A DNA stretch of 64,000 nt from Candidatus Latescibacterota bacterium (GTDB taxonomy: Bacteria > Latescibacterota > UBA2968): NCBI GenBank assembly GCA_965207885.1, contig OZ242311.1, positions 2,016,001 to 2,080,000 on the forward strand. Direction: 5' to 3'. Position numbers and translations under genes: made by a program. Below the pieces are notes generated by a model. That model ran no database searches, was not told the origin of the DNA, and saw only the letters and a list, made by a program, of their open reading frames with translations. This document shows, piece after piece, positions 1 through 16,198 of this stretch; positions within the stretch are counted from its first letter, which is position 1; every line of letters starts with the position of its first letter.

Positions 1-1939
1 TGACACTGTCTCCCCGGGTTATGGCGGTCGATAGGGTCAGTGTGATGTTGGATCCGATACTGGCATTACTGGGCTCTACCACCCTGTTATTCACTGTAAT
101 CCCGGCGACTGCTTTGATGATCCGTCCCAGTTCTACGTTGAGGAATTCACTGAGCCAGGTTACCTGCGGCGACACGTCGATTTCCTCGCTGAAGGATATA
201 GTGACTGTAAGTCCATCCGTAGATGTCTCAGATCCGGTATATATCGGACGAACACCGTCAACTTTGTGATCAGAATCAGGAGGAACAAATGCCTCACCAG
301 ATCGATAGTCTATTCGATTGCCTACCAGGTCGTTGATTGTTCCTAGATCACTGGGTTGAACTCCAGGAATATCTACTGACAAAGCGGCGACGGGTAGTTG
401 AATCCCGTCAGTTGAAAAATCACCTTCTTGAATTGTATATCTGAAAACTGCTTCTGTATCAGAAGACTCAACATAGCTTGCAAGTGCAGCAACTCGATCT
501 CGCAACGCTAAGATGTACTCAGGAGAACCTGTAATGTCAACAGACTCACTAAATCTGATAGTAACTTCTACCGAGTCTCCGATAGCGTAGCCGTCCGTAT
601 CAGGAGGAGTAGAAGTCAATTCAGCAGTTGCAACAAAAGGTCGAATGCCGTCAACTTTACGTGATGAATCAGTAGCTACTGCTGTATGAGTCAATTCAGC
701 AGTATTTTCACTGCGATCCTGAATATACTCATTCTCGCCTACTGGCAAGGATAATGAGTTGGCAATGATAGAGATGCCTAAGCTATCACTAAGACCTTCT
801 GATACTTGAAATGCGAATTCATGAGTGTTAGAGTAGTTGACTGAGAAACGATGATCAGCAGGTTGATACCTTGCCTCGACAGTATCAGCACCTACAACAA
901 CAGATAACGTTGGTCCTCCACTGACTCCTACGACTTCGCTGAACTTAACTTTTGCGATGACAACGTCATCAATAGCGAAAGTAAAATCTGAACCTGCACT
1001 GGTAATAAATTCAACCGCAGTGATTGTTGGTGCAATATGATCAAGACGACCATCTACCTTGTGATCCGCCTGGGGCTCGAAACCGGCATAGATCCGATAG
1101 GCCGCTGTACTCGTTCCCACGGCAGTGACGGCAGTGTGATTGATAAAATTATGCCACGTACCGTTACTGTCCTGGTAGCCGCCGTCCATTTTTATGCCGT
1201 CGTCGTCGCGATCAGCCGATTGGACCTCATAGCCGAAGACCAGCTTGTTGGTGCCGGAGCCGCGGAGGTAACCGGCGGATTTCCAGTTGCTGCCGACCCA
1301 GAGGCCAAGTGCCGGATTGCCATCTACATCTACAGCTCTGCTGAAGGTGGCCTCGAACTCAATGGTCTCGCTTTCGCCATAGGTGTCTTCCCTGATAGGA
1401 GATGAGATTATCTCGATGTCCGTGATGTTCGGGTCATTGTCAATGATGGTGATCACGCACTTGTTGTCGCGGGTGGGATCGTCGAGATCAACCACGAGAT
1501 CGGTAGGTGTGAAGCGGGCAGTGAAGGTCTCGTTGCCTTCAATCAGAGTGTCTTCCCTGGTTGCGAAGGTGCGCTTAGCCCGGTTGGCGAGGTGCTCTTC
1601 GCGGGTGGACCATATCGACTCTGTGTTCTGATGCACGTAATCATCAGTACCAGCCGTTCCCGCATCGGTGTGCCAGTACGCAGCGAAGGGTAAGATGTGC
1701 TGGTGGTTGGTCACTCGAATCAGGAAGACATCTACTGAGTCGCCTTCCACGACTGTCGTATCCGGGCAGTCGAGGTAGAGTTTGGCCGTGTCAGCAGGAA
1801 CTTTGCTGAGAGAGAATGTGGGCAAGTCTTCCTGGGCAGCAGAAACTGCGGGCGGATCTTGAAGGCCGTTCAGTCCGATGAGGATGGTGATCGCAACGAT
1901 GCATGCCGACCACCCGAGTATGCCGGTTATCTTTTTCAA
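1..1939 (-). CDS. Secreted Ig-like repeat surface protein (Calx-beta-like N-terminus, Ig-like repeats, SwmB-like domain); 3' end runs off the window; paralog of 2149-4470
   Basis: Absent from the ORF track because it has no stop in the window. Read manually: AAGGAGG SD, then TTG at 1939 giving MKKITGILGWSACIVAITILIGLNG (signal peptide). The same frame gives LYLDCPDTTVVEG...HKVDG...LSTAITRGDSV, matching the downstream paralog. Confidence 0.85.
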   Translation of the reverse strand, partial: MKKITGILGWSACIVAITILIGLNGLQDPPAVSAAQEDLPTFSLSKVPADTAKLYLDCPDTTVVEGDSVDVFLIRVTNHQHILPFAAYWHTDAGTAGTDDYVHQNTESIWSTREEHLANRAKRTFATREDTLIEGNETFTARFTPTDLVVDLDDPTRDNKCVITIIDNDPNITDIEIISSPIREDTYGESETIEFEATFSRAVDVDGNPALGLWVGSNWKSAGYLRGSGTNKLVFGYEVQSADRDDDGIKMDGGYQDSNGTWHNFINHTAVTAVGTSTAAYRIYAGFEPQADHKVDGRLDHIAPTITAVEFITSAGSDFTFAIDDVVIAKVKFSEVVGVSGGPTLSVVVGADTVEARYQPADHRFSVNYSNTHEFAFQVSEGLSDSLGISIIANSLSLPVGENEYIQDRSENTAELTHTAVATDSSRKVDGIRPFVATAELTSTPPDTDGYAIGDSVEVTIRFSESVDITGSPEYILALRDRVAALASYVESSDTEAVFRYTIQEGDFSTDGIQLPVAALSVDIPGVQPSDLGTINDLVGNRIDYRSGEAFVPPDSDHKVDGVRPIYTGSETSTDGLTVTISFSEEIDVSPQVTWLSEFLNVELGRIIKAVAGITVNNRVVEPSNASIGSNITLTLSTAITRGDSV

Positions 1940-1952
1940 GTCATTCCTCCTT

Positions 1953-2078
1953 AAAAAGAGTGGGTTATGGTTTGCTGGACCATTCACGCTGTGTATGTTG
2001 CGGCAGAGGGCCACTGGCTGACTACCAATCCGACAGGGCCTTCTGCCGTTTCCGCTGAGAAATATCACGGCTGATTCT
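1953..2078 (-). ncRNA. Conserved structured 5' leader, copy A (candidate cis-regulatory RNA)
   Basis: One of 5 copies. Hairpin CGGCAGAAGGCCCTG-TCGGATTGGTAGTCAGC-CAGTGGCCCTCTGCCG, ending at the SD of the next gene. Confidence 0.6.
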
Positions 2079-2148
2079 TAAAATATTTGAGACGACCTGC
2101 CAGGTGGGACTTTGTTTGGCTGTGTGATTTGGGGGTATGCCATCGCGA

Positions 2149-4470
2149 TTAGTCGTCGTCGTCAATGATTACATTTACACCTACTACTACCGAGTCATAT
2201 CCACCCCCACTGGCCGTGTGCGTCAGCCGCACCCAGTAATCTATACTGTCATCGTCCTGGGCGGCTGTCACTGTCACCGTCTGCGCTGTGTTCCAGTTCT
2301 GATTAGTGAATGTGAGACTTGTGGGATCTGTCGATAGCTTGTCCGAATCAGAACTGCTGATTGTTACGGTGACATCCGCCGAGGGCTGGGTTTTTAAGGC
2401 CACAGTGTAGGTCTCGGTCGCTCCTTCTGTAACCGTGAATCCCGTCGGTGTCAGTACCAGGTCTGCTGTGCTCGTTGTACCATCGGCAACCGTAGAATTG
2501 TTCGTGACGTCCTGATAGGAAAAAAGAGCGAGCGCGTTGCCAGCCGTATCGATGAAGAATCCCGGCGCACTCTGGGCGAAGTAATTGTTGTAATCTACTT
2601 TGACACTGTCTCCCTCGGTTATGGCGGTCGATAGGGTCAGTGTGATATCGGATCCGGAAATACTGGCATTACTGGGTTCTACCACCCTGTTATTTACTGT
2701 AATCCCGGCGACGGCTTTGATGATCCGTCCCAGTTCTACATTGAGGAATGTGCTGAGCCAGGTTACCTGCGACGGCACGGTGATGTCCTCGCTGAAGGTT
2801 ATGGTGACCGTCAGGCCATCCGTGGATGTTGCAGCACTGGAGAAGGTGGGATACACACCATCTACTTTGTGATCGGAATCGAAAGGCATAGCCCGGTGGA
2901 ACAGGTCAGCGGTATTTCCCACGGCGTCCTTTATGGTACCGCCGTTGAGAGTGAGTCCACGCATGGGGAAGCCGATGCCGCGGCTTGCAGAGTCGCTCTC
3001 CTCCACTGTGTAGATAAAGACTGCGCCATCTTCATTCGCGTTAACGTAGCTGGCCTGTTCCACCGCACTATCCTCGAAGGCCAGATCAATCTGCGGCGTG
3101 CCGGTAACGGTGATGTCTTCGCTGAATGTCACTGTCACTACGATGGTATCGCCGATGGCGTAGGTGGCATCATTTTTCGGAGTAGAGGTGAATTCTATGC
3201 TTGAGATGGTAGGAGACACACCATCTACCTTGTGTTCACTGTCAGAGGCCACGGCGTCGTGGGTCAGGTCAGCGTTGTTATCATATTGGTCCTTGATAGA
3301 ACCGCCATTGAGGGTGAGTTTGTTCGCACCGATGGAGATGCCGTTGCTGTCATTGTCACCCTCCACCACCTGGGTGAGGAAGCTCACCAAGAGGGAGTCA
3401 GTAGAGACGGCGGAGTAATCCGCCCTCCTTGACTTCGCACCGATGTCCAGAGACAATAGGGGGGTGCCAGTGATGATTACTCCTTTGCTGAATGTCACTT
3501 CCACGACGATAGAGTCGCCAATGCCGTAAGCACCGTCGTCTCCTGGATCAGAGGTGATATCAATTGATGATATGGTCGGGTCTATAGCCGCCGTGATTGA
3601 GCCATCTACCTTATGACCGGACTGGTTGCCGATGCCAGAATAGATCCGATAGGCCACTGTACTCGTTCCCACGGCAGTGACGGCAGTGTGATTGATAAAA
3701 TTATGCCACGTACCGTTACTGTCCTGGTAGCCGCCGTCCATTTTTATGCCGTCGTCGTCGCGATCAGCCGATTGGACCTCATAGCCGAAGACCAGCTTGT
3801 TGGTGCCGGAGCCGCGGAGGTAACCGGCGGATTTCCAGTTGCTGCCGACCCAGAGGCCAAGTGCCGGATTGCCATCTACATCTACAGCTCTGCTGAAGGT
3901 GGCCTCGAACTCAATGGTCTCGCTTTCGCCATAGGTGTCTTCCCTGATAGGAGATGAGATTATCTCGATGTCCGTGATGTTCGGGTCATTGTCAATGATG
4001 GTGATCACGCACTTGTTGTCGCGTTCCGGATTAGTCATATCTGTGACATTGCCAGTAGTTGTAAATCGTGCAGTAAAAGTCTCGTCGCCCTCGAGCAGGC
4101 TGTCTTGTCTAGTTCGAAAGGTGCGTTTTGCCCGCCCAGCTATGCGTTCAGCATCCGTACTCCAAATCGCACCTGTATTCTGATGAACGTAATCAGTAGA
4201 ATCAGCAGTTCCAGGATCAGTATGCCAAAACGCACCGAAATTTAAACCGTGATCATGATCGGTCACAAGAACGAGAAATACATCGACATTTTCTCCTTCA
4301 ACAACTGTCGTATCCGGGCAGTCGAGGTACCAACTTGCATTGTGAGTAGCGACCTTGCTAGCTTGTTGATCTTGAGCGAATATAGTAGACGGGTTTCGAA
4401 GATTGATAAAACCTGCTGCGAGTAGTACGATGATCGCAGACCATACTAGCCTGTCAAATTTCTTTCTCAA
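2149..4470 (-). CDS. Secreted Ig-like repeat/Calx-beta/SwmB-like surface protein
   Basis: ORF track gives 2149..4533. A better start is TTG 4470 after AAGGAGG (MRKKFDRLVWSAIIVLLAAG signal peptide). Three Ig-like repeats each end in HKVDG; the C-terminal domain is Calx-beta-like. Confidence 0.85.
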   Translation of the reverse strand: MRKKFDRLVWSAIIVLLAAGFINLRNPSTIFAQDQQASKVATHNASWYLDCPDTTVVEGENVDVFLVLVTDHDHGLNFGAFWHTDPGTADSTDYVHQNTGAIWSTDAERIAGRAKRTFRTRQDSLLEGDETFTARFTTTGNVTDMTNPERDNKCVITIIDNDPNITDIEIISSPIREDTYGESETIEFEATFSRAVDVDGNPALGLWVGSNWKSAGYLRGSGTNKLVFGYEVQSADRDDDGIKMDGGYQDSNGTWHNFINHTAVTAVGTSTVAYRIYSGIGNQSGHKVDGSITAAIDPTISSIDITSDPGDDGAYGIGDSIVVEVTFSKGVIITGTPLLSLDIGAKSRRADYSAVSTDSLLVSFLTQVVEGDNDSNGISIGANKLTLNGGSIKDQYDNNADLTHDAVASDSEHKVDGVSPTISSIEFTSTPKNDATYAIGDTIVVTVTFSEDITVTGTPQIDLAFEDSAVEQASYVNANEDGAVFIYTVEESDSASRGIGFPMRGLTLNGGTIKDAVGNTADLFHRAMPFDSDHKVDGVYPTFSSAATSTDGLTVTITFSEDITVPSQVTWLSTFLNVELGRIIKAVAGITVNNRVVEPSNASISGSDITLTLSTAITEGDSVKVDYNNYFAQSAPGFFIDTAGNALALFSYQDVTNNSTVADGTTSTADLVLTPTGFTVTEGATETYTVALKTQPSADVTVTISSSDSDKLSTDPTSLTFTNQNWNTAQTVTVTAAQDDDSIDYWVRLTHTASGGGYDSVVVGVNVIIDDDD

Positions 4471-4545
4471 ACTATACCTCCTTAAACGTAGTAGGTTATG
4501 AAGGTCTTGTAGACAGGTGAGTACGGTAAGCATAACAACAAATGC

Positions 4546-4578
4546 TTACCATCCAAGTATGCCGATTGTCTTTTCCAA
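4546..4578 (-). pseudogene. Degenerate N-terminus remnant or 10-aa uORF (MEKTIGILGW*)
   Basis: AAGGAGG SD plus TTG; homologous to the MKKITGILGW start of the gene at 1939; in-frame TAA at 4546-4548. Confidence 0.6.
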
Positions 4579-4591
4579 GTCATTCCTCCTT

Positions 4592-4762
4592 AAAAAGAGT
4601 GGGTTATGGTTTGCTGGACCATTCACGCTGTGTATGTTGCGGCAGAGGACCACAGGCTGACTACCAATCCGACTGGGACCTTCTGCTGTTTACGCTGAGA
4701 AATATCACGGCTGATTCTCAGCGTAAATTAGCCTCAAAGCGGTTCAACTTTGGGTTACATAT
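4592..4762 (-). ncRNA. Conserved structured 5' leader, copy B
   Basis: Near-identical to copies A/C/D/E; directly downstream of the sigma54 promoter at 4792-4808. Confidence 0.6.
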
Positions 4763-4791
4763 TCTCTTATTTGACAATATAATTTTAACTA

Positions 4792-4808
4792 TGCAAAATC
4801 TGTGCCAA
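4792..4808 (-). promoter_or_regulatory. sigma54 (-24/-12) promoter
   Basis: TTGGCACAGATTTTGCA versus consensus YTGGCACGRNNNTTGCW; GG-N10-GC spacing is exact. Confidence 0.85.
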
Positions 4809-4903
4809 CGTGAATTTGTCACAAGATAATTTATCATAAAGCATTATTTATATTTAAGTAATTAAAAAAGAAATATAAAAATCAGTCTGGAATTTTATAT
4901 TCT

Positions 4904-4945
4904 CAATTACCATATATCGTGATATTTAGCCATATATGGTGATTG
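4904..4945. promoter_or_regulatory. Putative enhancer (UAS) dyad for a sigma54 activator
   Basis: CAATTACCATATAT-N14-ATATATGGTGATTG (13/14 dyad), ~100-140 bp upstream of the -24 box; conserved at 12525-12566. Confidence 0.65.
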
Positions 4946-5015
4946 TCGATATTAAGAAAGCCCGTCTGGAGTTGCCCGCTTGAGTGGATAGTGTAGAAGG
5001 TTTCCCACCTTATCT

Positions 5016-8000
5016 TTACCAGCGCAGGGTGCCTCGTGCGAGCACCTCATGGTCTGCGCCGTTTAGCAACGGGCTTTCGCGGCGTTGCACATCAACGCCC
5101 AATTCGAAGTGGGGACGCTCCCGGTTCAAAAGCGCAAGGCCGTACCCTGCTCGGTAGTCCCGGCCATACTCAGAGGTCCCAAATCCGATTCTCGGTGTCC
5201 CAACGAAGCGTCTGCCCACAGGCAGACCGTAGCCTAAATCGGCTTTGAGGCGTCTTTCTGAAGTGTGTCTGTCGGAGACCCTGAACTGCTCCATCGTCTC
5301 TCTGCCCCACAGCATTTCGGCACCACTTACTGCCTGACCGCCCCACGATGGTGAAACCCGCGCTACAAATCCCAGAGGCGTTGACGGCCTCGGATTGTAA
5401 CTGAACGAGATCGCCACACCCTTATCCTGGAACCCTTTCGCCTGGTGTACCAGCAGTGTCCGCACCCGCACGTCGGCCGACAGCCCGGACAAGGGATTTA
5501 ATGCGATCAGGCTACCGGCGAGGTCCACGCCCGCACCCGTTTCGGCGTCGCCGCCGTCGTGCCGCAACCCAACCTCCAGGCGCGGCTGCAACGACATTCC
5601 ATCCCCCAACGCGTAGCTGCGCGAGGCTTCCAGACCCGCACGCAACCGCGTCACCAACGCCCGTGTCGCCGCCAGATTCCCCGCTGGACCAGCTATGTCT
5701 GCGTTCGCCATCGCCACCCCCAGCGCATCCGTCTTGAATGCCAGCCCAAAGCCGCCCACCGACGTAAACTCGCCCCGCAGCCCCGCCGCGGCCATCGCCA
5801 TCGACAGCCCCGTCTCCAGCACCGCACCTGCGCCCGGCGTCAAGCACAACCCACCCTTGCCGTATCCGGTCACACCCCAGAGTGTGATGCGGTCGGTCGC
5901 CCTGTAGCCCAGCCACGGGTAGAGTCCTGTCACCGACGAAGCCAACTGGCCGTTGTCGATGTCTGCATACCTGCCCTGGCCCCGGCTGTGCGCCAGTGTC
6001 AGGCCCGTCACCAGCGGCCCCTTCGCGTAGTCAAAGCCGAACAGCAGCGAGCGCACAGCCCCGTTCAGTGACAGCGTACCTTCACGCCCGCTGAAATCCG
6101 AATGGGAACCGTTGCTCCAAAATGACAGGACGCTCCCGCGACGCATCTCACGGTTAAGCGTGAACGCAGAGCCGGTCAGCACATCGCCTCTACCACCCAC
6201 GGATATCCGGAGAAGTTTAGCGATGTCTAGGTCGCCACCACTTGTCCGGTGTCCGCCTGCTGCCATGCCGCCCAATCGATTGAGGAAACCCTGCGCTATA
6301 TCGCGCTCCAGGCTCCGTCTCAGGTGCCATCCCGCGACCCGACCTTCAAAGCCAGGATCGCGTGGGGCGGCAATGCGTTTCTTCACTTGCTCGACCACAC
6401 GCACTGCCACTGTGCGCCCGAAACGCGCCATATAGGCTTGAGGCATGGGGTCGGAGTTGGCAATCGTACCCGTTGCCTCGGCGCGGGTGATGGTGAGTGT
6501 GCGCAGCGTGTTGCCATTGCCATCCATCAGCCGTGCGTTGCTGATCTTGACCTTCACTGTCTCGCCGTTGTCATTCACCGTGTCGTCAATGATCCGGACG
6601 AATGGTCTTTGATGCACCTCTCTCTTATCCATCCAGTCCGAATACTTGGGGCGAGCCAGATAGTCCGTCCCTTCGATGGCGGTCCCTCCCGAGATGGTCT
6701 CGAAGTCGTACACGATGTAGTAGCGCTGCGAAGGGCGCGAAGCGGTGACGGTGAACCGGAGCCACCCGTCATCCTCATTCGCGGTTGCATCCCTGATCGA
6801 TAGCGTCGGGTACGAAGCGTTGAGGGTGAGCGACGGGGCGTTCAAGAGTAGTCTGCCGTCCGGGTCGCACAGCGCGCCGTCCAGGTTGCAGGCCTGATTG
6901 GCAGTCATCGCGACGATGACCTCGCCGTCATCGGTTTCTGGACGCACCTCCATCCGCCAATGGTTGCTGAAGGTCGCGAACTTCGTGGTGCCGGGAAGAC
7001 GCCTGCGTTTCTTGTGGATGCGCTGTGCCTTAACGATTTCACCGTCCGTCACTGTGAAGACGTAGTCGCGCATGTCCTTGAAGCTCTTGGAGATGGCTGT
7101 CGAGAGCTTCAGGTCAAAGACGTAGTGAAGCCGCCCGCCCGATCCGTCCACCGGGTTCTTCTCCACGAGTCTCGCGGTAAGCCCGGTGCTCGGTGTGCCT
7201 TTGACAATATCCGAGGGGGTGCTATCGCCCGTGTCGTTCGTCGCGATGACGCGGACCATGTACTCCGGGCCGTTGGTCACACCCGTGATCGTGTAGCTCG
7301 TGTCCTCATCGTCCTCCAGGATCGCCTGGCGCCCGTCTGTCTCCGCATCGGCAAAGGTCTCGCCCCCCGACTTCCACTCGACCTTATATCCTCTGGCACC
7401 TATCGGTCTCTCCCAGGTGACCTCGAGTTGTCCGTGCTTCGGGATCACCTGCACGCCAGTTACCTGGTCTGGAGGATTCGTGAACAGCTTTATGAGCACC
7501 ACCTCTCCGAAAGTCCAGTCCAGGTCAAACTGGTCCGGAAGACTGTCTCGCCAGTCCTGGACCTGATCGCCGAAGTGCACGACCACACCCGATCCGGTAA
7601 GGGATAAAATGGCAGTCAGGGCGTTCCAAGGGGGATCGAACCCAAGTGGTAACGACTTATTGATAGGGTCGTACTCCAGCCGGTTCAGGGTGTACGTATT
7701 GCCGAGGATCTCAAACGACCGTGGCACCAGCGCGCCCGTCCCGTTCGTCTTGTTGTACCCCAGGAGGTTCCCGTTGAGGTCAACCGTCAGGTTCGCGGTG
7801 AACGCCGCCATAGGGTCCGCAGTCGGCGCGCCCGCCGCGCGCGCCACCTTGATCGTGTAGGTCGCCGTGGTGTTGTCCTCGGCCGTGACCGTGATCGTGA
7901 CCGTGTTGAGACCCTCGGACAGCGCCAGTGTGGCCGTGCCCGGCGTGGTCGTGTCCGTATCGCCCGCGATCGCCACCGTCGCGCCGTCGTCGTTCTTCGT

Positions 8001-8225
8001 CGCCGTTACCACGATTGAAGTCGTGTCGTTCTGAACAAACACGCGGTAGGCCATCGTGTTCGCGGAGAATGTCGGGCTGAGCGTCAAGCTCGTGCCGCCA
8101 CCTGTCGTCAGCGCCAGCGCGCTCAGTGTGGCGTCGCCGGACTGCGCCATCACAGCGTGCGGAATCGCCAGTAGCGCGGCGAGTGCCAACAGAAGGATAC
8201 GGTGGAAAGTCGTGACTCTGTGCAT
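5016..8225 (-). CDS. Autotransporter-like adhesin: cadherin-like beta-sandwich, FN3, Calx-beta, C-terminal outer-membrane beta-barrel
   Basis: Start reassigned to ATG 8225 (AAGGAG SD; MHRVTTFHRILLLALAALLAIPHAVMA signal peptide). Motifs: DATLSAL...ITVTAED (cadherin-like), PPDQVTGVQV...YKVEWK...YMVRV (FN3); terminal TLRW beta-signal-like strand. Confidence 0.8.
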   Translation of the reverse strand: MHRVTTFHRILLLALAALLAIPHAVMAQSGDATLSALALTTGGGTSLTLSPTFSANTMAYRVFVQNDTTSIVVTATKNDDGATVAIAGDTDTTTPGTATLALSEGLNTVTITVTAEDNTTATYTIKVARAAGAPTADPMAAFTANLTVDLNGNLLGYNKTNGTGALVPRSFEILGNTYTLNRLEYDPINKSLPLGFDPPWNALTAILSLTGSGVVVHFGDQVQDWRDSLPDQFDLDWTFGEVVLIKLFTNPPDQVTGVQVIPKHGQLEVTWERPIGARGYKVEWKSGGETFADAETDGRQAILEDDEDTSYTITGVTNGPEYMVRVIATNDTGDSTPSDIVKGTPSTGLTARLVEKNPVDGSGGRLHYVFDLKLSTAISKSFKDMRDYVFTVTDGEIVKAQRIHKKRRRLPGTTKFATFSNHWRMEVRPETDDGEVIVAMTANQACNLDGALCDPDGRLLLNAPSLTLNASYPTLSIRDATANEDDGWLRFTVTASRPSQRYYIVYDFETISGGTAIEGTDYLARPKYSDWMDKREVHQRPFVRIIDDTVNDNGETVKVKISNARLMDGNGNTLRTLTITRAEATGTIANSDPMPQAYMARFGRTVAVRVVEQVKKRIAAPRDPGFEGRVAGWHLRRSLERDIAQGFLNRLGGMAAGGHRTSGGDLDIAKLLRISVGGRGDVLTGSAFTLNREMRRGSVLSFWSNGSHSDFSGREGTLSLNGAVRSLLFGFDYAKGPLVTGLTLAHSRGQGRYADIDNGQLASSVTGLYPWLGYRATDRITLWGVTGYGKGGLCLTPGAGAVLETGLSMAMAAAGLRGEFTSVGGFGLAFKTDALGVAMANADIAGPAGNLAATRALVTRLRAGLEASRSYALGDGMSLQPRLEVGLRHDGGDAETGAGVDLAGSLIALNPLSGLSADVRVRTLLVHQAKGFQDKGVAISFSYNPRPSTPLGFVARVSPSWGGQAVSGAEMLWGRETMEQFRVSDRHTSERRLKADLGYGLPVGRRFVGTPRIGFGTSEYGRDYRAGYGLALLNRERPHFELGVDVQRRESPLLNGADHEVLARGTLRW

Positions 8226-8238
8226 AGTTGGTCTCCTT

Positions 8239-8398
8239 AAACAGAGTGGGTTATGGTTTGTTGGACCATTCTCGCTCTGTATGTTGCGGCAGAAGATCAC
8301 AGGCTGACTACCAATCCGACTGGGACCTTCCGCTGTTTCCGTAAATATCACGACTCATTCTCTGAGCCTCAAAACGATTCAAATTTCGGGTCACATAT
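8239..8398 (-). ncRNA. Conserved structured 5' leader, copy C (no promoter of its own visible)
   Basis: Same hairpin and invariant loop; begins ~12 bp after the activator stop codon at 8411. Confidence 0.6.
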
Positions 8399-8410
8399 CC
8401 GATACACCAT

Positions 8411-11400
8411 TTAAGGACGTTTGATCCCCAGTTTTTTCATTTTGCCATACAGGGTAGAAGGCGGTAATCTTAGCAGTGCCGCTGCGCCCCTATTCCCGCT
8501 TATCTGATAGTTGGCGATTTTGAGCACTTCGAGAATATAGTGTCGCTCATATTCATCCAAAGGCACGACTTCGCGGTCCTGAGAAACTGTCACGGTGCGC
8601 CTTTTAGGATCAAGATCCGGACCTGTGATTCGGAAACCATACAGTCCTAGATCACCCACTTCGATTTGAGAACCGCGACACACGATGACGGCTCGCTGTA
8701 TCGTATGTTCCAGTTCCCGCACATTGCCAGGCCAATCGCAGGCTTGCAACACCTCGATAACCTCTGGCGTCAAAGGGGCTATTTGCTTGCCCAAATGTGT
8801 GGCCATGCGATTTTTGAAAAACTCAGCGAGGTGCGGGATATCCTCCTTGCGCTCGCGCAAGGGAGGGAGATAGATTGGAAAAACCTGGAAACGATAATAC
8901 AGATCCTCGCGGAATGCTCCTGAACTGACCAGTTCCTCAAGATTGCGATTCGTCGCTGCCACAATGCGCGCCTGCACCGACAGCGTCTCGCTACCTCCAA
9001 CGCGCTCAAATGTACCCTCTTCCAGTAATCGCAACATCCTGACCTGTGTTTGCGGAGCCATATCGCTGACCTCGTCCAAAAAGAGCGTACCGCCCTTAGC
9101 CAGTTCTACCTTGCCCAATCTGCGAGACACTGCACTGGTAAACGCTCCCTTTTCGTGACCAAAAAGCTCACTGTCGATCAGCGTTGCTGGCAATGCTCCG
9201 CAGTTGACCTGTATAAAAGGTCCATCGCTATTGGGACTCTGCGCGTGTAACACCCGCGCAGCCAATCCCTTGCCTACACCCGTCTCGCCTATAAACAGCA
9301 CGGACAGATCAGTGGGTACTACCTTTCTAAGTTGGAATTGAAACTGTTGCAAAACCTCGCTCTGACCGATAAACTCGTTACTCCCCTGGTTATTGAGTGT
9401 CGCAGTCAGGCCCTCAATACGCGGATCTGGCTCTACAGAGAGTTGAATTTGCGCGATCTCTGAGTAATTGAGGTCGCGATCTATCGCTCTGACCTGAAAC
9501 GTGTACTCGCCCGGTGGCAAGTTCTGATAATGTGCCCTCATTTCTCGGGTCGCAGGCTGCCAGTTGGGGTCGTATCCCTTCAGGCGATAGATATAGAGCA
9601 TGTCGCGGGGATGGGTAGAAAAACTCAGGCTCTTGTATTCAAAAATTACATCTTGATCCATCGTAGAGACGATGTCTTCCTTCGGGTTCTCATAGACCTG
9701 ACCAGCGACAACTTGAATCAGGCGAATCATGGGCGGCGTCTTTCGCAGGCGGTAGCGCACCAGCGTGTTTTGGGCTGTACCGAAATAGAAGGCGCCATCG
9801 CGGTCTTCGAGTATTTTAAGCACCGGTCCTATGTGCGGTGATTTGATGGTCTGGAAAAGCTGGCCATCGTAGTGAACTACGCCGCCGTCTGTGCCGAGCC
9901 AGAGGCGACCTTGAGAGTCCTCAAGCAAGCAATGGATGCGGTTGTTCGGCAAACCGTCTTCAGTCGTGAAGGTCTGGAAGGTGCTACCATTAAAACAGGC
10001 AAGACCGCCCTGGGTCGCCACCCACAGGTTGCCATGGCGGTCTAATAGCAGGTCACTGACCCTGTCATTGATCAGCCCGTCTTCAACCCCGTAAAATTTG
10101 AGGTCATCTTTGGGATGCCAGCGTGCGAAGCCCTTGTCGATGTCAGAGAAATGTTGATGAGCGAGATAAAAATAGACCTCGCCATTGCGCCCGGTAATCA
10201 CAGTACCGATGTAGCTGAAAGGATCCTTATTTTTATCTTTTACAATAATGGTTTGGAACTGCTCACCCCGCTGACAAGTGAGTCTCAAAGGACTGGCAAA
10301 AAGTGCTCTTTTTTCTTTGTCTTTTTTATTTTCCCAATGACCGAAAAGAAATTGCCCTTCCCGATCCTGGGCAATTGCACAAACACTGCTTGAACCTGCG
10401 GTTGTTTGCATTTTTTTTATCTTCTGCCCATCGTAGCGGAATAAGCCATTGATGCCGCCAAACCACAGATACCCGTCGTGGTCTTCGTAGATGGCAAAAC
10501 AGTTATTGATATCAAAATCATCCTCAGGGCCTATCAGGTCAATGGCCTCCCCATCAAAGCGAAAGACGCTATTGCTTTGATATGTAAAAACAGGAGACAC
10601 AGACCCCACCCATATATCACCGCGACTGTCTTGCACGATCTGCGAGACCTCACTCACGCTTTCAGAAGCCCTTGCACTGAAGTCGAAAACGCTGATACTA
10701 TGCGCATCGTAAAGACCGACACCACCCCACGTAGCAAACCAATACTGATGTTCGCGATCCTGGAACACGGCTTTGACTGCGGGATGGGGCAACCCATCGG
10801 GAGGCGTAAACTTGCTGAACCCATCACCGTCCTGATAGAGCACGCCTTCTGAGGTGCAAAACCACATCCGACCTTCTCGATCGCATTGAATTTTGCGCAG
10901 TGGACTACCCAAATCTACCTGAACAGGCTGGAAATTGCCATCGGCATAGCACCAGAGTTCGTTCTGATGTCCACGTTGACCAAACCACACCTTACCGGTA
11001 TCGTCCTGCCCCACCGCATAGCTTATATCGACTGTGGGAACCCCCTCTTTCTCTTCATAGCGATGGAAGGAAGTGCCATCAAAGCGAATGAGGTGGTTAA
11101 AGCCAAACCACAGGTGGCCTTTCGGGTCCTGGGCAATGCCCCGACACTGTTTACGACGAAGTAGCGGCTCGTAGTGCTTAAGATAGAGCGGCATCAGGTC
11201 GTGGAACACAGTCCCGTCGTAATATCCCAGGGTCCTGTGACCGCCACACCATATACGCCCCTCACGATCTTCGTAGATGAACTGCACAGCGCGGCCTGCG
11301 ATCCCCTCATCTTCCAAATGATGGAAATTTGTCCCATCGTACCAGCAGACCCCATTTCGTGTACCAAACCACAACCGATCACGTCTGTCCTTTTGAACAA

Positions 11401-11617
11401 AATAAATACTATCATTAATAAGACCGTCCTGTTGCGTAAAATTTCGAAACTCGTCTCCATCAAAGCGACTAACGCCGTTATCACAGGTGGCGAACCAGAG
11501 ATAGCCCGCGCTGTCTTCGGCAATGTGTTCAATGCGCATCCCGGCCAGACCATCGGCTATAGAATAAGTCCGCCAGGTGCCTTTGCGGTTAAGTGATTGG
11601 ATCATAAAAATCCCCAT
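8411..11617 (-). CDS. sigma54-dependent enhancer-binding protein with N-terminal two-component-regulator propeller repeats and Y_Y_Y domain (paralog 1)
   Basis: DxxGxLWF propeller repeats; YIYRLKGYD...[15 protein letters not shown] (Y_Y_Y); GETGVGK Walker [27 protein letters not shown]; C-terminal Fis-type HTH. Start may be ATG 11605 by homology with paralog 2. Confidence 0.92.
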
Positions 11618-11684
11618 GATACAGGTAAAAATTTAGTTCATAGTGGGGCTCCTTTCTAACTACTGAGAAGGTAACCGCCAAAAC

Positions 11685-11814
11685 GATGCTGTTGCCGAAT
11701 TAGTCAAGAGGGAGTCTGCGGTTGGAAAAATGGCTATTTGTGGCCTGAATGCAGGCTCTGTAAGCCCTATGTTTAGTTGTATTGAGATAGAATTCGGAAT
11801 TCGGCAACAGCATC
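11685..11814. mobile_element. MITE-like element, 130 bp, perfect 17-bp terminal inverted repeats, 6-bp target-site duplication
   Basis: GATGCTGTTGCCGAATT (11685-11701) / AATTCGGCAACAGCATC (11798-11814); CAAAAC flanks both sides (11679-11684, 11815-11820). Confidence 0.85.
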
Positions 11815-11839
11815 CAAAACGGGTCAAGTCCACTAACAC

Positions 11840-12163
11840 TTACAAGTCCTCGACTCTTTCGTACTCATTACGGGCACGACGTAATAATCCCGTCTTCTTA
11901 GTATCAACGACAGGACGAGTTTCCACATTATTCGTAACGGACATTGCCAAAGCCACAACCCATCCAATAAACGTCCATCCAAGAAATAAATTGATTACCA
12001 GGATGGAGGCTCGGTTTCTATGGTATCGAAAAAACGCAGTAATTGCCGGAGCGAAGTAAAGTGCCAGTAAGAGCACCAAAATAAACTGACCCATCCCGGT
12101 ATTTAACAAAGTGTCCCTGAGATCTGACAAGGCTAAATACAACATTAATAAGTCATAATACAT
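11840..12163 (-). CDS. Superinfection immunity-like membrane protein (T4 Imm family)
   Basis: LYFAPAITAFFRYHRNRASILVINLFLGWTFIGWVVALAMS matches the family pattern YFLPxIIA..R.H.....I..NLFLGWTxIGWxxAL. Confidence 0.8.
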   Translation of the reverse strand: MYYDLLMLYLALSDLRDTLLNTGMGQFILVLLLALYFAPAITAFFRYHRNRASILVINLFLGWTFIGWVVALAMSVTNNVETRPVVDTKKTGLLRRARNEYERVEDL

Positions 12164-12220
12164 ATCTAATTTCTCATCGTGTAGTTTGATAAGAAATAAA
12201 CCGACAAGCCTTTAACATCA

Positions 12221-12384
12221 AAAAGAGTGGGTTATGGTTTGCTGGACCATTCCTGCTCTATATGTTGCGGCAGAAGGCCACAGGCTGACTACCAATCCGA
12301 CTGGGACCTTTTGACGTTTTTGCTGAGAAATATCACGGCTGATTCTCTGAGCATCAAAACAGTTCAAATTTTGGGTCACATATT
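12221..12384 (-). ncRNA. Conserved structured 5' leader, copy D
   Basis: Same hairpin and loop; downstream of the sigma54 promoter at 12411-12427. Confidence 0.6.
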
Positions 12385-12410
12385 CTTCTTTGCGAAATAA
12401 CTCTAAACTA

Positions 12411-12427
12411 TGCAATATCCGTGCCAA
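12411..12427 (-). promoter_or_regulatory. sigma54 (-24/-12) promoter
   Basis: TTGGCACGGATATTGCA, a perfect match to YTGGCACGRNNNTTGCW. Confidence 0.9.
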
Positions 12428-12524
12428 AGTGATTTTTCACAAGATAATTTTAATCATAACGTGTTATTTATGTTGAATTAATTAAAAGAGGAGATATATA
12501 AATCAGTCTGAAATTTTATATTCT

Positions 12525-12566
12525 CAATCACCATATATCGCGATATTTAACCATATATGATGATTG
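12525..12566. promoter_or_regulatory. Putative enhancer (UAS) dyad
   Basis: CAATCACCATATAT-N14-ATATATGATGATTG (13/14 dyad), at nearly the same distance from the promoter as 4904-4945. Confidence 0.65.
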
Positions 12567-12582
12567 CCGATATTAACAGAAC

Positions 12583-15500
12583 TTAAGAGAATTTGATTCC
12601 CAGTTTTCTCATTTTGCCATACAGGGTAGAAGGCGGTAGTCCCAGCAGTACCGCTGCTCCCCTATCCCCACTTATCTGATAGTTGGTGATTTTGAGTACT
12701 TCGAGAATATAGTGTCGCTCATATTCGTCCAAAGGCACGACTTCGCGGTCTTGAGAAACTGTCACGGTGCTCCTCTTAAGATCAGGAGTCGGGCCTTCGA
12801 TTCGCAAACCATGCAGTCCGAGATCCCGCACTTCGATTTGCGAACCGTGACACACGATTACGGCTCGCTGTATCGTATGCTCCAGTTCACGCACATTGCC
12901 AGGCCAATCGTAACTTTGCAATACCTTTATAACTTCTGGCTCGAGGGGAGCTATTTGTTTACCCAGGTGTGTAGCCATGCGATGCTTGAAAAACTCAGAT
13001 AGGTCCGGTATATCTTCCTTGCGCTCGCGCAGTGGAGGTAGAAGAATTGGAAAAACCTGGAAACGATAATACAGATCCTCGCGGAAAATACCTGTGCTAA
13101 CCATATCCTCCAAATTGCGATTCGTCGCAGCCACAATGCGCGCCTGTATCGATAGTGTCTCGCTACCTCCAACGCGCTCATAAGTGCCCTCTTCCAGCAA
13201 GCGCAACATCCTGGCCTGTGTTCCCACAGCCATATCGCTGACCTCGTCTAAAAAGAGCGTGCCGCCCTTAGCCAGTTCTACTTTGCCCAGCCTGAGAGAC
13301 TCTGCGCCGGTAAACGCTCCTCGTTCGTGACCAAACAGTTCACTATCGATCAGCGTTTCAGACAGTGCACCGCAGTTGACCTGTATAAAAGGTCCATTAC
13401 AATAGTGACTCTGTGCGTGTAACACCCGCGCAGCCAATCCCTTGCCTACACCCGTCTCGCCTATAATTAGCACCGTTATATCAGTGGGTGCTACCTTTCT
13501 GAGCCGGATCTGAAATTGTTGCAAAACCTCGCTCTGACCGATAAACTCGTTATCCCCCTGATTATTGAGTGTCGCAGTCAGGCCCTCAATACGCGGATCT
13601 GGCTCTACCGAGAGTTGAATCTGCGCCATCTCTGAGTAATTGAGATCACGGTCTATCGCTCTGACCTGAAAGGTGTAGTCTCCCGGTGGCAAGTTCCGGT
13701 AGTAGGCCCGCGTCTTTCGTGTCGCAGGCTGCCAGTCGGGGTCGTATCCTTCAAGACGATAGACATAGAGCATGTCGCTGGGATGGGTGGAAAAACTCAT
13801 CCCCTTATACTCAAAAGTCACCTGTTGGTCTGTCGTAGAGCCGATGCCTTCTTTCGGGTTCTCATAGACCTGATCGGCGACAACTTGAAGCAGACGCACC
13901 CTGGGCGAGGTCTGTCGCAGGCGATAGCGCACCACCGTGTTTTGTGCTGTGCCAAACCAGAAAGATCCATAGCGATCTTCGAGTATTTTGAGCACCGGTC
14001 CTATGTGCGATGACTTGATGGTCTGGAAAAGCTGGCCATCGTAGTGAACCACGCCGCCGTCTGTGCCAAGCCAAAGGTGGCCTTGCGAATCTTCGAACAA
14101 ACAACGGATGGCATTGCTCGGCAGACCATCTTTAGTCGTAAAGTTGTGGAAGGTACTGCCATCAAAGCAACTGAGACCTCTTTGAGTAGCGACCCACAGG
14201 GTGCCATTGCGGTCTTCTATAAGATCGGTGACTCTGTCATCTATCAGTCCGTCTTCAACCTCGTAAAATTTGAGGCCATCTTCGGGATGCCAGCGTGCGA
14301 AGCCCTTGTTCGTGTCGGAGAAATTTTGGTGGATGAGATGAAAATAAACCTCGCCATTGCGCCCGGTAATCACAGTGCCAATGCGGCTGTAAGGATCTTT
14401 ATCTTTTTCCTCTGAAAAAATGGTTTGGAACTGCTCACCTTGCTGACAAATGAGTCTCAATGGGTGGACAAAAAGGTATCTTCTTCTCTTTTTATTTTCG
14501 TTTTCCCAATGACCAAAAAGGAATCTCCCTTGCGAATCCTGATCAATTGCACAAATACTGCCTGAACCTGCGGGTGTTTGCATTTTTTCGAGCTTCTGCC
14601 CTTCGTAGCGAAACAAGCCATTGACGCCGCCAAACCACAGGCATCCATCACGGTCCTCGTAGATGGCAAAACAGTTGTCTATATCGCCATCTTCAGTGCC
14701 TACAAAGTCAAAGTGTTCGCCATCAAAGCGAAAAACGCTTTTCTCCAGACGGTTGAGAAAAGGAGCGGCATATCCGATCCATATATCTCCTCGCCGATCT
14801 TGTACGAGTTGTGAGATTTCACTTACTTCTCTGGATAATTTCGCACTGAGGTCGAAAACGCTGATACTCTGTGCATCGTAGAGCCCAATACCTCCCCAGG
14901 TGGCAAACCAATACTGATATTCGCGATCATGGAATACAGCTTTGACCGCGGGATGGGGCAGGCCATTGTCAGAGGTAAACCTGTTGAACCCATCACCATC
15001 CTGAAAGAACACGCCTTGTGACGTGGAAAACCACATTCGACCTTCACTATCACACTGAATTTTGCGCAGTGTGCCCTCCAAATCTACCTGAACAGACTGA
15101 AAGGAGCCATCTGCATAGCACCAGAGTTTATTTTCGTATTCGCGATAGCCGATCCACACCTTACCGGTATGGTCCTGCCCCACAGCATAGCTCGTCAGAA
15201 TGCGTGGCGGAAACCCCTCTTCCTCTTCATAGCGATGGAAGGATTGACCGTCAAAGCGGATGAGGTAGTTAAAACCAAACCACAGGTGGCCTTTCGGATC
15301 CTGGGCAATTCCCCGGCACTGGTTGGACCACTGTGGTGAAGGAGGTTTCTCGTAGTGCTGAAGATAGAGTGGGATCAGGTCGTGAAACACAGTGCCGTCG
15401 TAATATCCCAGAGTGCGATGACCACCACACCATATACGCCCCTCACGGTCTTCGTAGATGGACTGCACGGCACGGCCTGCAATCCCGTCATCCTCCAGAT

Positions 15501-15786
15501 AGTGGAAATCTGCTCCGTCATACCAGCAGACCCCATTTAGTGTACCAAACCACAACCGATCACGATTGTCCTGTAAAACAAAATGAACGCAGTCATCCAC
15601 AAGACCATCCTGTCGCGTAAAATTCTGAAACTCATCTCCGTCGAAGCGACTGACGCCGTTGTCCCAGGTAGCGAACCAGAGATAGCCTTCGCTATCCTCG
15701 GCGATGTGTTCAATGCGCATCCCGGCCAGGCCATCGGCTATAGAATAAGTCCGCCAGGTGCCCGTGCGATCAAGTGATTTGAGCAT
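12583..15786 (-). CDS. sigma54-dependent enhancer-binding protein with propeller + Y_Y_Y sensor (paralog 2)
   Basis: Colinear and highly similar to 8411-11617; canonical GAFTGA, GETGVGK, HTH. Confidence 0.92.
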   Translation of the reverse strand: MLKSLDRTGTWRTYSIADGLAGMRIEHIAEDSEGYLWFATWDNGVSRFDGDEFQNFTRQDGLVDDCVHFVLQDNRDRLWFGTLNGVCWYDGADFHYLEDDGIAGRAVQSIYEDREGRIWCGGHRTLGYYDGTVFHDLIPLYLQHYEKPPSPQWSNQCRGIAQDPKGHLWFGFNYLIRFDGQSFHRYEEEEGFPPRILTSYAVGQDHTGKVWIGYREYENKLWCYADGSFQSVQVDLEGTLRKIQCDSEGRMWFSTSQGVFFQDGDGFNRFTSDNGLPHPAVKAVFHDREYQYWFATWGGIGLYDAQSISVFDLSAKLSREVSEISQLVQDRRGDIWIGYAAPFLNRLEKSVFRFDGEHFDFVGTEDGDIDNCFAIYEDRDGCLWFGGVNGLFRYEGQKLEKMQTPAGSGSICAIDQDSQGRFLFGHWENENKKRRRYLFVHPLRLICQQGEQFQTIFSEEKDKDPYSRIGTVITGRNGEVYFHLIHQNFSDTNKGFARWHPEDGLKFYEVEDGLIDDRVTDLIEDRNGTLWVATQRGLSCFDGSTFHNFTTKDGLPSNAIRCLFEDSQGHLWLGTDGGVVHYDGQLFQTIKSSHIGPVLKILEDRYGSFWFGTAQNTVVRYRLRQTSPRVRLLQVVADQVYENPKEGIGSTTDQQVTFEYKGMSFSTHPSDMLYVYRLEGYDPDWQPATRKTRAYYRNLPPGDYTFQVRAIDRDLNYSEMAQIQLSVEPDPRIEGLTATLNNQGDNEFIGQSEVLQQFQIRLRKVAPTDITVLIIGETGVGKGLAARVLHAQSHYCNGPFIQVNCGALSETLIDSELFGHERGAFTGAESLRLGKVELAKGGTLFLDEVSDMAVGTQARMLRLLEEGTYERVGGSETLSIQARIVAATNRNLEDMVSTGIFREDLYYRFQVFPILLPPLRERKEDIPDLSEFFKHRMATHLGKQIAPLEPEVIKVLQSYDWPGNVRELEHTIQRAVIVCHGSQIEVRDLGLHGLRIEGPTPDLKRSTVTVSQDREVVPLDEYERHYILEVLKITNYQISGDRGAAVLLGLPPSTLYGKMRKLGIKFS

Positions 15787-15903
15787 AATAAAACCTTATG
15801 ATACAGGTGAAAATTTTAGTTCACATCGGATAACACATCACGACTATAAACCCTTCTTAATCTATGTATTTTCATAACCAAATTTTAAGGAAAATGTTGC
15901 GAT

Positions 15904-15957
15904 TTACGAATCTCTTTCCCTGAAGAGTTGAACTGAAACAATCTGGTTTTTCATCAT
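15904..15957 (-). CDS. Possible 17-aa uORF/leader peptide MMKNQIVSVQLFRERDS
   Basis: AAGAGGT SD 6 nt before ATG, just downstream of leader copy E; very short. Confidence 0.3.
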   Translation of the reverse strand: MMKNQIVSVQLFRERDS

Positions 15958-16004
15958 ATTATTACCTCTTGATTTTTGAATTTTAAAACTATACATTTAA
16001 AAAT

Positions 16005-16105
16005 AGAGTGGGTTATGGTTTGTTGGACCATTCCTGCTCTGTATGTTGCGGCAGGGGGCCACAGGCTGACTACCAATCCGACATGGCCTTCTGCCGTTTT
16101 TGCTG
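16005..16105 (-). ncRNA. Conserved structured 5' leader, copy E
   Basis: Same hairpin and invariant loop; AT-rich upstream flank without a sigma54 box. Confidence 0.55.
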
Positions 16106-16198
16106 CAATGAAAAAATAAAATAAATTTGTGTTTTTTTAATCTGATACTAAATAAAGTAAAAGTCAAGATTTTCTATATTGTTACCCGTTTTTTATGA

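Follow-up and report, generated by a model that had tools for sequence, protein, structure and literature searches.

The first 16 kb (positions 1-16105) of a 64,000-nucleotide (nt) stretch of Candidatus Latescibacterota DNA appear to combine two layers of gene control: a sigma-54 switch operated by activators with a beta-propeller sensor, and a separate, portable leader RNA that would place many mRNAs under a shared control after transcription initiation. This is the reading of the sequence that we favor on balance, while leaving considerable room for others. The whole stretch, called the window here (G000:C1:2016001-2080000), lies within a 6.23-Mb metagenome-assembled genome (MAG) that consists of a single contig; public sequencing runs containing parts of it are mostly labelled sponge metagenome, which is a lead only, and none of those listed is recorded as an RNA run. 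Open reading frames (ORFs) and Pfam matches place every gene of 1-16105 on the minus strand. These genes belong to a co-directional string that is ~20 kb long, the region making up its upstream two thirds. The inventory and transcription order given for it in the initial annotation proved correct when compared with the ORFs, Pfam matches, repeats and a direct reading of the sequence.

Propeller-Sensor Activators

The string contains two activator genes, and both proteins have the same domain order in Pfam: multiple Reg_prop repeats (PF07494; 174.4 and 164.4 bits), Y_Y_Y (PF07495; 50.8 and 58.6 bits), Sigma54_activat (PF00158; 212.7 bits in both), AAA_lid_14 (PF25601; 82-83 bits) and a sub-threshold HTH_8. 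The translation of activator 1 reads GAFTSA, and that of activator 2 GAFTGA, at what we take to be the sigma-54 contact loop of bacterial enhancer-binding proteins (bEBPs). The best Protein Data Bank (PDB) matches of the AAA+ part are the AAA+ domains of FlrA, NtrC, NifA, FleQ and ZraR (E~1e-72 to 1e-74). The sensor, a ~730-residue tandem beta-propeller plus Y_Y_Y module, matches the periplasmic sensor structures 4a2l (E 1.4e-39), 3v9f (4.4e-38) and 3ott (8.9e-21) of hybrid two-component systems (HTCS). The activators had been described as soluble, and their hydropathy agrees: the highest 19-residue Kyte-Doolittle means are 1.05-1.18 and are located in the Walker A region. Since no hydrophobic segment exceeds 1.18, both proteins are predicted to be cytoplasmic. 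Judged from these comparisons, the activators are cytoplasmic one-component relatives of the Bacteroides HTCS glycan sensors.

The source genome (G000) has 30 Sigma54_activat matches and about 28 sigma-54 activator genes. Eight matches are of the propeller type, seven of them full length, and other genomes of the genus have up to 11. Of 151 genomes sampled across the phylum, 49 contain the propeller type at E<=1e-150; they belong to 13 of 46 genera. Close relatives are found almost exclusively in records titled Candidatus Latescibacterota MAG. A propeller activator with 70% identity is also present in a MAG whose title is uncultured Rhodothermaceae, on a contig of 12.7 kb (L073, CAZCYQ010000079.1), which could be a binning error or a gene transfer. 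Three further sigma-54 activators of G000, with open frames of ~1610-1640 aa (1387404, 1889614 and 5337011), are larger than the propeller type.

A sigma-54 promoter is present 165-307 nt past the stop codon of four of the eight G000 paralogues. Elsewhere, the strict pattern places one 166-457 nt downstream at 18 of 32 paralogue loci, and each of these is equipped with a long dyad of its own, located ~100-185 nt ahead of the -24 box. These downstream promoters would therefore imply that a sensor gene followed by its own enhancer/promoter and cargo is a habit of the family.

At one other G000 locus (L129, G000:C1:832755-840000), a paralogue with 82% identity to activator 1 has other palindromes behind it (GGACCATATAAGG..., GGGGCCATTTATGGCCCC), then the identical promoter core, TGGCACGGATATTGCA, and, with no leader, DUF1800 fragments and a leucine-rich repeat (LRR)/EF-hand protein.

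Control Blocks and Extent of the Proposed Regulon

Promoters B and D match TGGCAC-N5-TTGCA at 11 of 11 positions. A dyad lies ~100-140 bp upstream of each: CAATCACCATATATGG-N10-CGATATATGGTAATTG, with 16-bp arms, at B, and a counterpart at D whose centre is ~120 nt upstream of the -24 GG. The stretch between dyad and promoter is AT-rich. The control block that the initial annotation had called conserved was found again, the 421-nt block 4540-4960 being 84% identical to block D over 364 nt by BLAST; a repeat search gives 89% identity for the 92-nt repeat 4864-4955 versus 12485-12576. Chance would not come near to producing the repeats of this region. At the level of sequence, everything required for the proposed enhancer-dependent sigma-54 control is present: an rpoN gene (PF04552, 196 bits; single copy in the genome), the GAFTSA/GAFTGA loops, perfect -24/-12 elements and a dyad at enhancer distance.

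A short conserved motif, TTCAGACTGATTT, is present between enhancer and promoter at 4850-4900 and 12470-12520, and paralogue promoters have the counterparts CAGTCTGGTTTTTT, ATCGGTCTGGCTC and ATCAGGCTAATTT. From its sequence and position, it may be a bend or an IHF/HU-type site.

The 21 genomes of the genus were scanned for the dyad pattern with up to three mismatches and with the reversed pattern as a control. The dyad has 13 sites in seven genomes (G000, G003, G005, G007, G008, G010 and G014), and the reversed pattern has none in the 21. The association of the control block with these activators, on which the initial annotation depended, holds in other genomes: six of the seven dyad genomes have orthologues of at least 79% identity, as compared with none of the 14 others, where the best full-length match to activator 1 is 77%. 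One of the latter, G013, has a partial 83% match that covers the conserved AAA+ part only. Because the genomes are close kin, this co-occurrence is to be read as an association and not as statistics.

The locus had also been described as a self-contained regulon, and this description has to be given up. Beyond the left edge of the window, a sixth leader (genome 2015350-2015478) comes after protein A, and behind this leader is a 1096-aa polysaccharide lyase of family 8 (PL8) with Lyase_N, Lyase_catalyt (244.8 bits) and Lyase_8 domains. A third complete block, with dyad, TGGCACggataTTGCA promoter and leader, lies 760 kb away (genome 1,257,100-1,257,441) and is followed by a 347-aa protein without a clear family, a sulfatase-modifying enzyme of the formylglycine-generating enzyme (FGE) type (175.6 bits) and a coiled-coil protein. 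The lyase gene with its leader and this third block show that the regulon is not confined to the window.

The arrangement of promoter D, Imm gene and activator 1, in which the initial annotation saw a hint of feed-forward control, is kept in G008 and G010. With the order activator 2, dyad, promoter, Imm gene and activator 1 preserved there, the feed-forward reading stays alive. The terminator scan found no minus-strand terminators between the cistrons except the P0 hairpins of the leader (see below); overall it gave 19 sites versus 14.9 +/- 5.0 in shuffles, i.e., not above chance.

The Leader RNA: Distribution and Structure

The leader is a 128-nt repeat with five copies in the window (A to E; Table 1), 70-100% identical to the reference copy. 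BLAST finds seven copies in G000, and a covariance model (CM) built from 30 copies finds eight. By the same model the leader is present in 16 of the 21 genus genomes, with one to eight copies per genome, and in none of 131 genomes sampled from the phylum outside the genus. Rfam 15 gave no match at E<=1 at the leader positions in the window or at eight loci with group 2 or 3 copies. As far as these comparisons go, the leader belongs to no described RNA family.

The structure alignment contains 63 hits, which represent 60 distinct copies. The element is ~100-130 nt long and has the helices P0, P1 and P2, the last enclosing P3. A conserved linker, GCAACAUACA, connects the long hairpin P1 with P2, which surrounds the P3 hairpin, and the loop and junction nucleotides are highly conserved. 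The sequence of P0 depends on the group (GAGAAUCA..UGAU..UUCUC in the window's group, CGCAGGCAUG..UGCCUGCG elsewhere), its position is constant and it has its own compensatory changes despite the differing sequence. In the 60 distinct copies 92.8% of the cells pair, versus 33-54% with slid partners; compensatory changes are present in 14 of the 23 modelled pairs, and none of 500 shuffles reaches the observed values. Single-sequence minimum free energy (MFE) folds give P0-P3 as well; the z-scores of three window copies are -2.4 to -2.6, and those of three from other groups -4.2 to -6.2. The final codons of activator 1 in G010 overlap with the 5' strand of P1, and a compensatory U-A keeps the pairing there. 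An all-against-all covariation scan for a pseudoknot, or a kissing contact of the P1 loop with the P3 loop, mainly picked up between-group differences and gave no convincing extra pair.

The observations on the strand of the leader are divided, and we favor a sense (gene-strand) cis element. In the alignment, G-U cells outnumber A-C cells in P1 (41 versus 29) and in P3 (11 versus 6), about nine copies have tandem G-U/U-G pairs in the middle of P1, and the promoter scan gives no plus-strand promoter just below copies A-D. Start codons lie between 13 and more than 300 nt from the leader. What follows P2 is not a conserved U-run (UUUUU, GUUU or AUUU in most group 1 copies; GUGA, GUUC or ACCU in others), and the terminator scan did not flag P2. 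The variable distance and the unconserved U-run therefore argue against a simple sequestration of the Shine-Dalgarno (SD) sequence and against a plain terminator. At modest odds, a shared factor or ligand would dock on the leader and thereby determine read-through, stability or translation.

Some other candidates were rejected. The leader is not a small ORF, as group 2 copies have ACG in place of the ATG of P3. A 17-codon ORF after leader E (15905-15957, MMKNQIVSVQLFRERDS, with a good SD sequence) is broken in L023 (the G008 orthologue reads ATG TAG) and is probably unconserved. An integron attC site does not fit: all four PF00589 genes are more than 300 kb from any leader, and no leader follows the last gene of the string. 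A sigma-54 promoter hidden in the A-run and P0 of group 2 fits only as TGGTAC-N5-ACGCA in the related L018, L025 and L027.

The Leader as a Portable Module

The initial annotation had treated the leader as a part of the sigma-54 device. It is not, because in G008 and G010 the orthologous D site has enhancer, promoter, spacer and Imm gene and lacks the leader. Only 11 of the 60 distinct copies have, in the 400 nt before them, a sigma-54 promoter that matches at 10 or more of the 11 positions; these copies lie 44-157 nt downstream of it and have the same orientation, and the other 49 are without one. A leader within 6 kb is found at only four of 33 paralogue-activator loci.

The pieces are joined in several ways. 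Blocks B and D and the distant block of G000 consist of enhancer/promoter, spacer untranslated region (UTR) and leader. Leader C is promoterless, its spacer and leader coming right after the stop codon of activator 1, and leader A and the sixth copy are hardly more than P0-P3. Leader E has an AT-rich region upstream with only a weak sigma-70-like match, and its position upstream of activator 2 is conserved for the orthologues in five other genomes. In G003 and G005 the promoter is joined to the leader without a spacer. From these patterns, we regard the leader as a separate, portable RNA module.

The genes behind the leader are diverse. A propeller activator follows it in six genomes; other proteins are the Ig-like proteins, a cadherin/fn3/Calx-beta protein, the PL8 lyase and Imm_superinfect (twice), a homologue being found behind a leader in G013. 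Further cargo consists of ankyrin, LRR (at least four), WD40+CARDB+dockerin, Calx-beta, PEGA (twice), outer membrane protein (OMP) beta-barrel, WG-repeat, dockerin and GPP34+P450 proteins, along with at least eight proteins without a Pfam family. The eighth G000 leader (genome 4,180,884) precedes an LRR/EF-hand protein beside response regulator (RR)-AraC regulators. PMC12993501 describes sponge-associated Latescibacterota as rich in eukaryote-like proteins of this kind.

Proposed Mechanism and Alternatives

We propose that the two cytoplasmic paralogues sense through the Reg_prop propeller and Y_Y_Y module fused to the sigma-54 AAA+ domain and a putative Fis-type helix-turn-helix (HTH). They would bind the dyad with its 16-bp arms, centred ~120 bp upstream of the -24 element, and open the promoter upon ligand binding. 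The predicted targets in or near the window are the two Ig-like proteins, the cadherin/fn3/Calx-beta protein and the PL8 lyase; at the second target site, 760 kb off, they would be the 347-aa exported protein and the FGE-type sulfatase-maturing enzyme. Promoter D would also read into activator 1, giving a positive feed-forward. As to the signal, the lyase and sulfatase maturase and the resemblance of the sensor to HTCS lead us to guess at a fragment of a sulfated or uronic-acid glycan that is imported into the cell.

The leader would probably be part of gene-strand transcripts, either as a 5'-UTR or as an intercistronic element. It precedes each cistron of the string, the sensor genes included, and across the genus it would act behind different promoters on a cargo of variable envelope, secreted and eukaryote-like repeat proteins. 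We predict that it is a cis-acting RNA that subjects all of these mRNAs to one common post-initiation step, the likeliest form being that a common trans-factor docks on it and thereby controls read-through, stability or translation. Of the initial proposal that local activators switch on surface cargo, the switch itself is supported by the sequence requisites and the co-occurrence with the dyad; the regulon is wider than was thought and the leader is separate from it. A bolder version, to which we give rather little credence, would make the leader a new ligand- or protein-sensing RNA (riboswitch-like, self-processing or of the processive-antitermination kind) that puts a host-interaction secretome under one signal, with the propeller sensors reading imported host-matrix glycans. 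If true, this secretome would comprise ankyrin, LRR and WD40 proteins, adhesins and a glycosaminoglycan-type lyase, together with the sensors that induce them.

Several points weigh against the two-layer reading. On the activator side, HTH_8 (PF02954) scores 18.1 and 21.3 bits versus a Pfam cut-off of 22; G014 has the dyad and a best activator match of 73%, in an assembly of 50 contigs; the co-occurrence counts are not independent in such close kin; and the glycan signal is based on neighboring genes and sensor-fold homology only. On the leader side, two genomes do without the element at the orthologous D site, and the alignment behind the pair counts was fitted to the leader model. Other points concern the strand: P2 has 10 G-U versus 26 A-C cells, which favors the opposite strand; the overall count is equal (64 versus 61); the reverse complement is more stable in 36 of the 60 copies by MFE; and in many group 2 and 3 copies an A-run (AAAAAA) followed by P0 reads as an intrinsic terminator, a GC hairpin with a U-run, on the other strand.

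These strand observations, together with a plus-strand sigma-70-like site at 15933-15962 that points into leader E, are what would be expected if the element were a small antisense RNA gene on the opposite strand, running against the 5' end of the cargo gene and ending at the reverse complement of P0 and a U-run. We think this has a slim chance of being correct. The window copies A-D have neither a plus-strand promoter just below them nor an A-run before P0, the co-oriented sigma-54 promoters of the 11 copies mentioned above face the other way, and the tandem G-U/U-G pairs of P1 would turn into tandem A-C mismatches. The stability of the reverse complement is of little weight because the unpaired parts of the gene strand are C/A-rich and those of its complement G/U-rich, and G/U-rich strands fold more stably anyway. 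Somewhat easier to entertain, if still unlikely, is a genus-specific repeat of the kind of the BOX, ERIC and Correia intergenic repeats, a palindromic module which would spread through recombination or insertion, would merely be co-transcribed and would at most have generic effects, for example protection of mRNA ends or a site for processing, with no dedicated trans-factor or signal. Its presence and absence at an orthologous site are clean-edged (the G000 copy is flanked by TTTTGATG on both sides), the junctions vary among genomes, the element is confined to one genus, and a true transposable element is only 400 nt away. However, the copy number is low (one to eight per genome), no terminal inverted repeats were seen on the leader, and all 42 of 42 distinct copies examined have a same-strand ORF of at least 90 aa starting within 420 nt, some of these ORFs being doubtful. 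In addition, the unpaired GCAACAUACAGAG and AAACC-N2-AACCC are highly conserved across groups that are only 74% identical, three helices have compensatory changes, and the site before the activator-2 orthologues is kept in six genomes.

The remaining alternative concerns the dyad, which some other regulator may bind, the propeller activators acting elsewhere and their adjacency being incidental. The third block, without an adjacent activator and with a glgB-like gene upstream, the dyad of G014 without a close orthologue and the choice offered by the many other sigma-54 activator genes of the genome would fit this idea. We consider it improbable, as the dyad and the orthologues occur together as described above (six of seven genomes versus none of 14), the dyad begins 17 nt past the activator 2 stop codon in all syntenic genomes, and the paralogues have their own distinct dyads at the same relative position.

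Organization of the Locus and Its Cargo

The features of the string are listed in Table 1 in the order of transcription. The starts called at 2068 and 8351 by the ORF caller extend into leader sequence; the likely starts are TTG 1939 and ATG 8225, each 13 nt past a leader and behind AAGGAG.

Table 1. Features in positions 1-16105 of the window and at the upstream end of the string
Feature	Position	Strand	Basis and remarks
Terminator of unrelated PIG-L gene	16228-16196	-	Upstream end of string
Weak sigma-70-like candidate promoter, leader E/activator 2, TTGACT-17-CAGATT	16139-16167	-	By eye; not listed by promoter scan
Leader E, core P1-P3, without P0	16001-16099	-	CM R1 118.8 bits; 214 nt upstream of activator 2
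Activator 2, Reg_prop/Y_Y_Y + Sigma54_activat (GAFTGA) + sub-threshold HTH_8	12583-15786	-	Pfam, translation; no transmembrane (TM) segment
Dyad D, predicted enhancer/upstream activating sequence (UAS)	12525-12566	-	Starts just past activator 2 stop
Sigma-54 promoter D, TGGCACggataTTGCA	12411-12426	-	Direct reading and consensus match
Leader D, P0 + P1-P3	12220-12350	-	CM 107.4 bits for core 12220-12319
Imm_superinfect protein, 107 aa, two-TM	11840-12163	-	Pfam 59.6 bits; two hydrophobic segments
Miniature inverted-repeat transposable element (MITE)	11678-11813	-	Terminal inverted repeats, 8-bp target duplication CGTTTTGG
Activator 1, paralogue of activator 2 (79% identity), GAFTSA	8411-11617	-	Pfam, translation
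Leader C + spacer UTR, no promoter	8239-8398	-	CM 108.9 bits for core 8239-8338; alignment
Secreted Cadherin-like/fn3/Calx-beta protein	5016-8225	-	Pfam and signal peptide
Dyad B, predicted enhancer/UAS	4904-4945	-	Direct reading and pattern scan
Sigma-54 promoter B, TGGCACagattTTGCA	4792-4807	-	Direct reading and consensus match
Leader B, P0 + P1-P3	4592-4722	-	CM 103.5 bits for core 4592-4691; fold
Putative Ig-like surface protein B, 794 aa	2149-4533	-	Weak evidence only (DUF4625 below cut-off; Atlas leads)
Leader A, P0 + P1-P3, intercistronic	1953-2080	-	CM 114 bits for core 1953-2051
Putative Ig-like surface protein A, paralogue of B	1-1939	-	No Pfam family; gene continues past window edge

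The MITE recognized by the initial annotation is genuine. It has terminal inverted repeats of ~17 bp in addition to the target duplication, the site is empty in G008 and G010, and the genome has further copies at 87% and 74%. A partial copy is also present at G000:C1:1259436-1259488, just past the FGE-sulfatase gene of the distant block.

The protein encoded by 5016-8225 had been called autotransporter-like, for which the ESM Atlas gives the one lead (0.96, with 30 of 30 hits in PF03797 clusters); the C-terminus has no Pfam match, PF03797 included, at E<=10. Its C-terminal ~450 aa may be an autotransporter beta-domain. The G+C content over 5000-8000 is 59-68%, versus 38-54% in the neighbors, which suggests that this cargo gene was recently acquired.

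Proteins A and B have no Pfam family above the cut-off, DUF4625 falling below it for B, and the ESM Atlas leads for them are to Big_5/Calx-beta at 0.85 or less. Behind leader B, an A-like start, TTG 4578 (13 nt past the leader), stops after 10 codons (..TGG TAA), and protein B starts at ATG 4533 instead, its N-terminus being different but retaining a hydrophobic segment. At this end protein B was thus remodelled relative to its paralogue A.

Comparison with Known Systems

Enhancer-dependent sigma-54 systems with bEBPs of the NtrC family include NtrC/glnAp2, NifA/nifH and XylR/Pu. The system described here resembles them in its AAA+ domain with a GAFTGA-type loop, its putative C-terminal Fis-type HTH and a dyad ~100-150 bp upstream of GG-N10-GC, with AT-rich sequence in between. 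It differs in that the regulatory domain is a propeller plus Y_Y_Y and not REC, GAF, PAS or V4R, in that the family is expanded (the eight G000 copies, and up to 11 per genome) and in that the target promoter typically comes after the activator gene and not before it.

For the leader, the nearest comparisons are the c-di-GMP-I (GEMM) riboswitch, a multi-copy leader before surface-protein genes, and EAR, an operon-internal read-through RNA. Like these, it is a ~100-nt structured RNA with conserved unpaired nucleotides and several copies per genome, which is found before adhesin-like or secreted genes and also between the cistrons of long operons. It is unlike them in lacking a match in Rfam at the threshold used and in that no recognizable expression platform was found, and its restriction to a single genus is far narrower than the distribution of known riboswitch classes.

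With the Bacteroides HTCS (sensors 4a2l/4a2m and 3v9f) the activators share the Reg_prop + Y_Y_Y sensor and a neighbor that degrades polysaccharide, the PL8 lyase. They differ in having neither a signal peptide nor a TM helix, so that the sensor is predicted to be cytoplasmic, and in their output, a sigma-54 AAA+ ATPase with a putative Fis HTH versus HisKA/HATPase/REC/AraC; none of the HTCS kinase and output domains HisKA, HATPase_c, REC and AraC was found in the activators by Pfam at E<=0.01. Unlike at HTCS loci, no SusC/SusD pair was seen in the locus. The nearest described simplification of an HTCS appears to be BguR, which according to its description (bioRxiv 10.64898/2026.01.10.698779) works as a one-component regulator that spans the membrane, with a GerE output. 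Like the activators, BguR as described there works without a phosphorelay; the activators differ from it in being cytoplasmic and in having the sigma-54 AAA+ and putative Fis HTH output instead of GerE.

Full-text literature searches on regulation in Latescibacterota and sponge symbionts found only genome surveys and the HTCS/BguR work. As far as these searches show, an HTCS-type sensor would be new to the sigma-54 activator family.

Conclusions

Regulation has hardly been studied in Latescibacterota or, more generally, in sponge symbionts. The natural presence and absence variants of leader, spacer and MITE are equal to ready-made deletion constructs. The leader motif is well populated, with its 60 distinct copies, lies outside Rfam, has clear helices and marks genes for eukaryote-like proteins. 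In conclusion, the locus would represent a compact circuit, in which a soluble HTCS-type sensor works on sigma-54 through a defined predicted enhancer and governs a cargo that looks suited to host-matrix degradation and host interaction.

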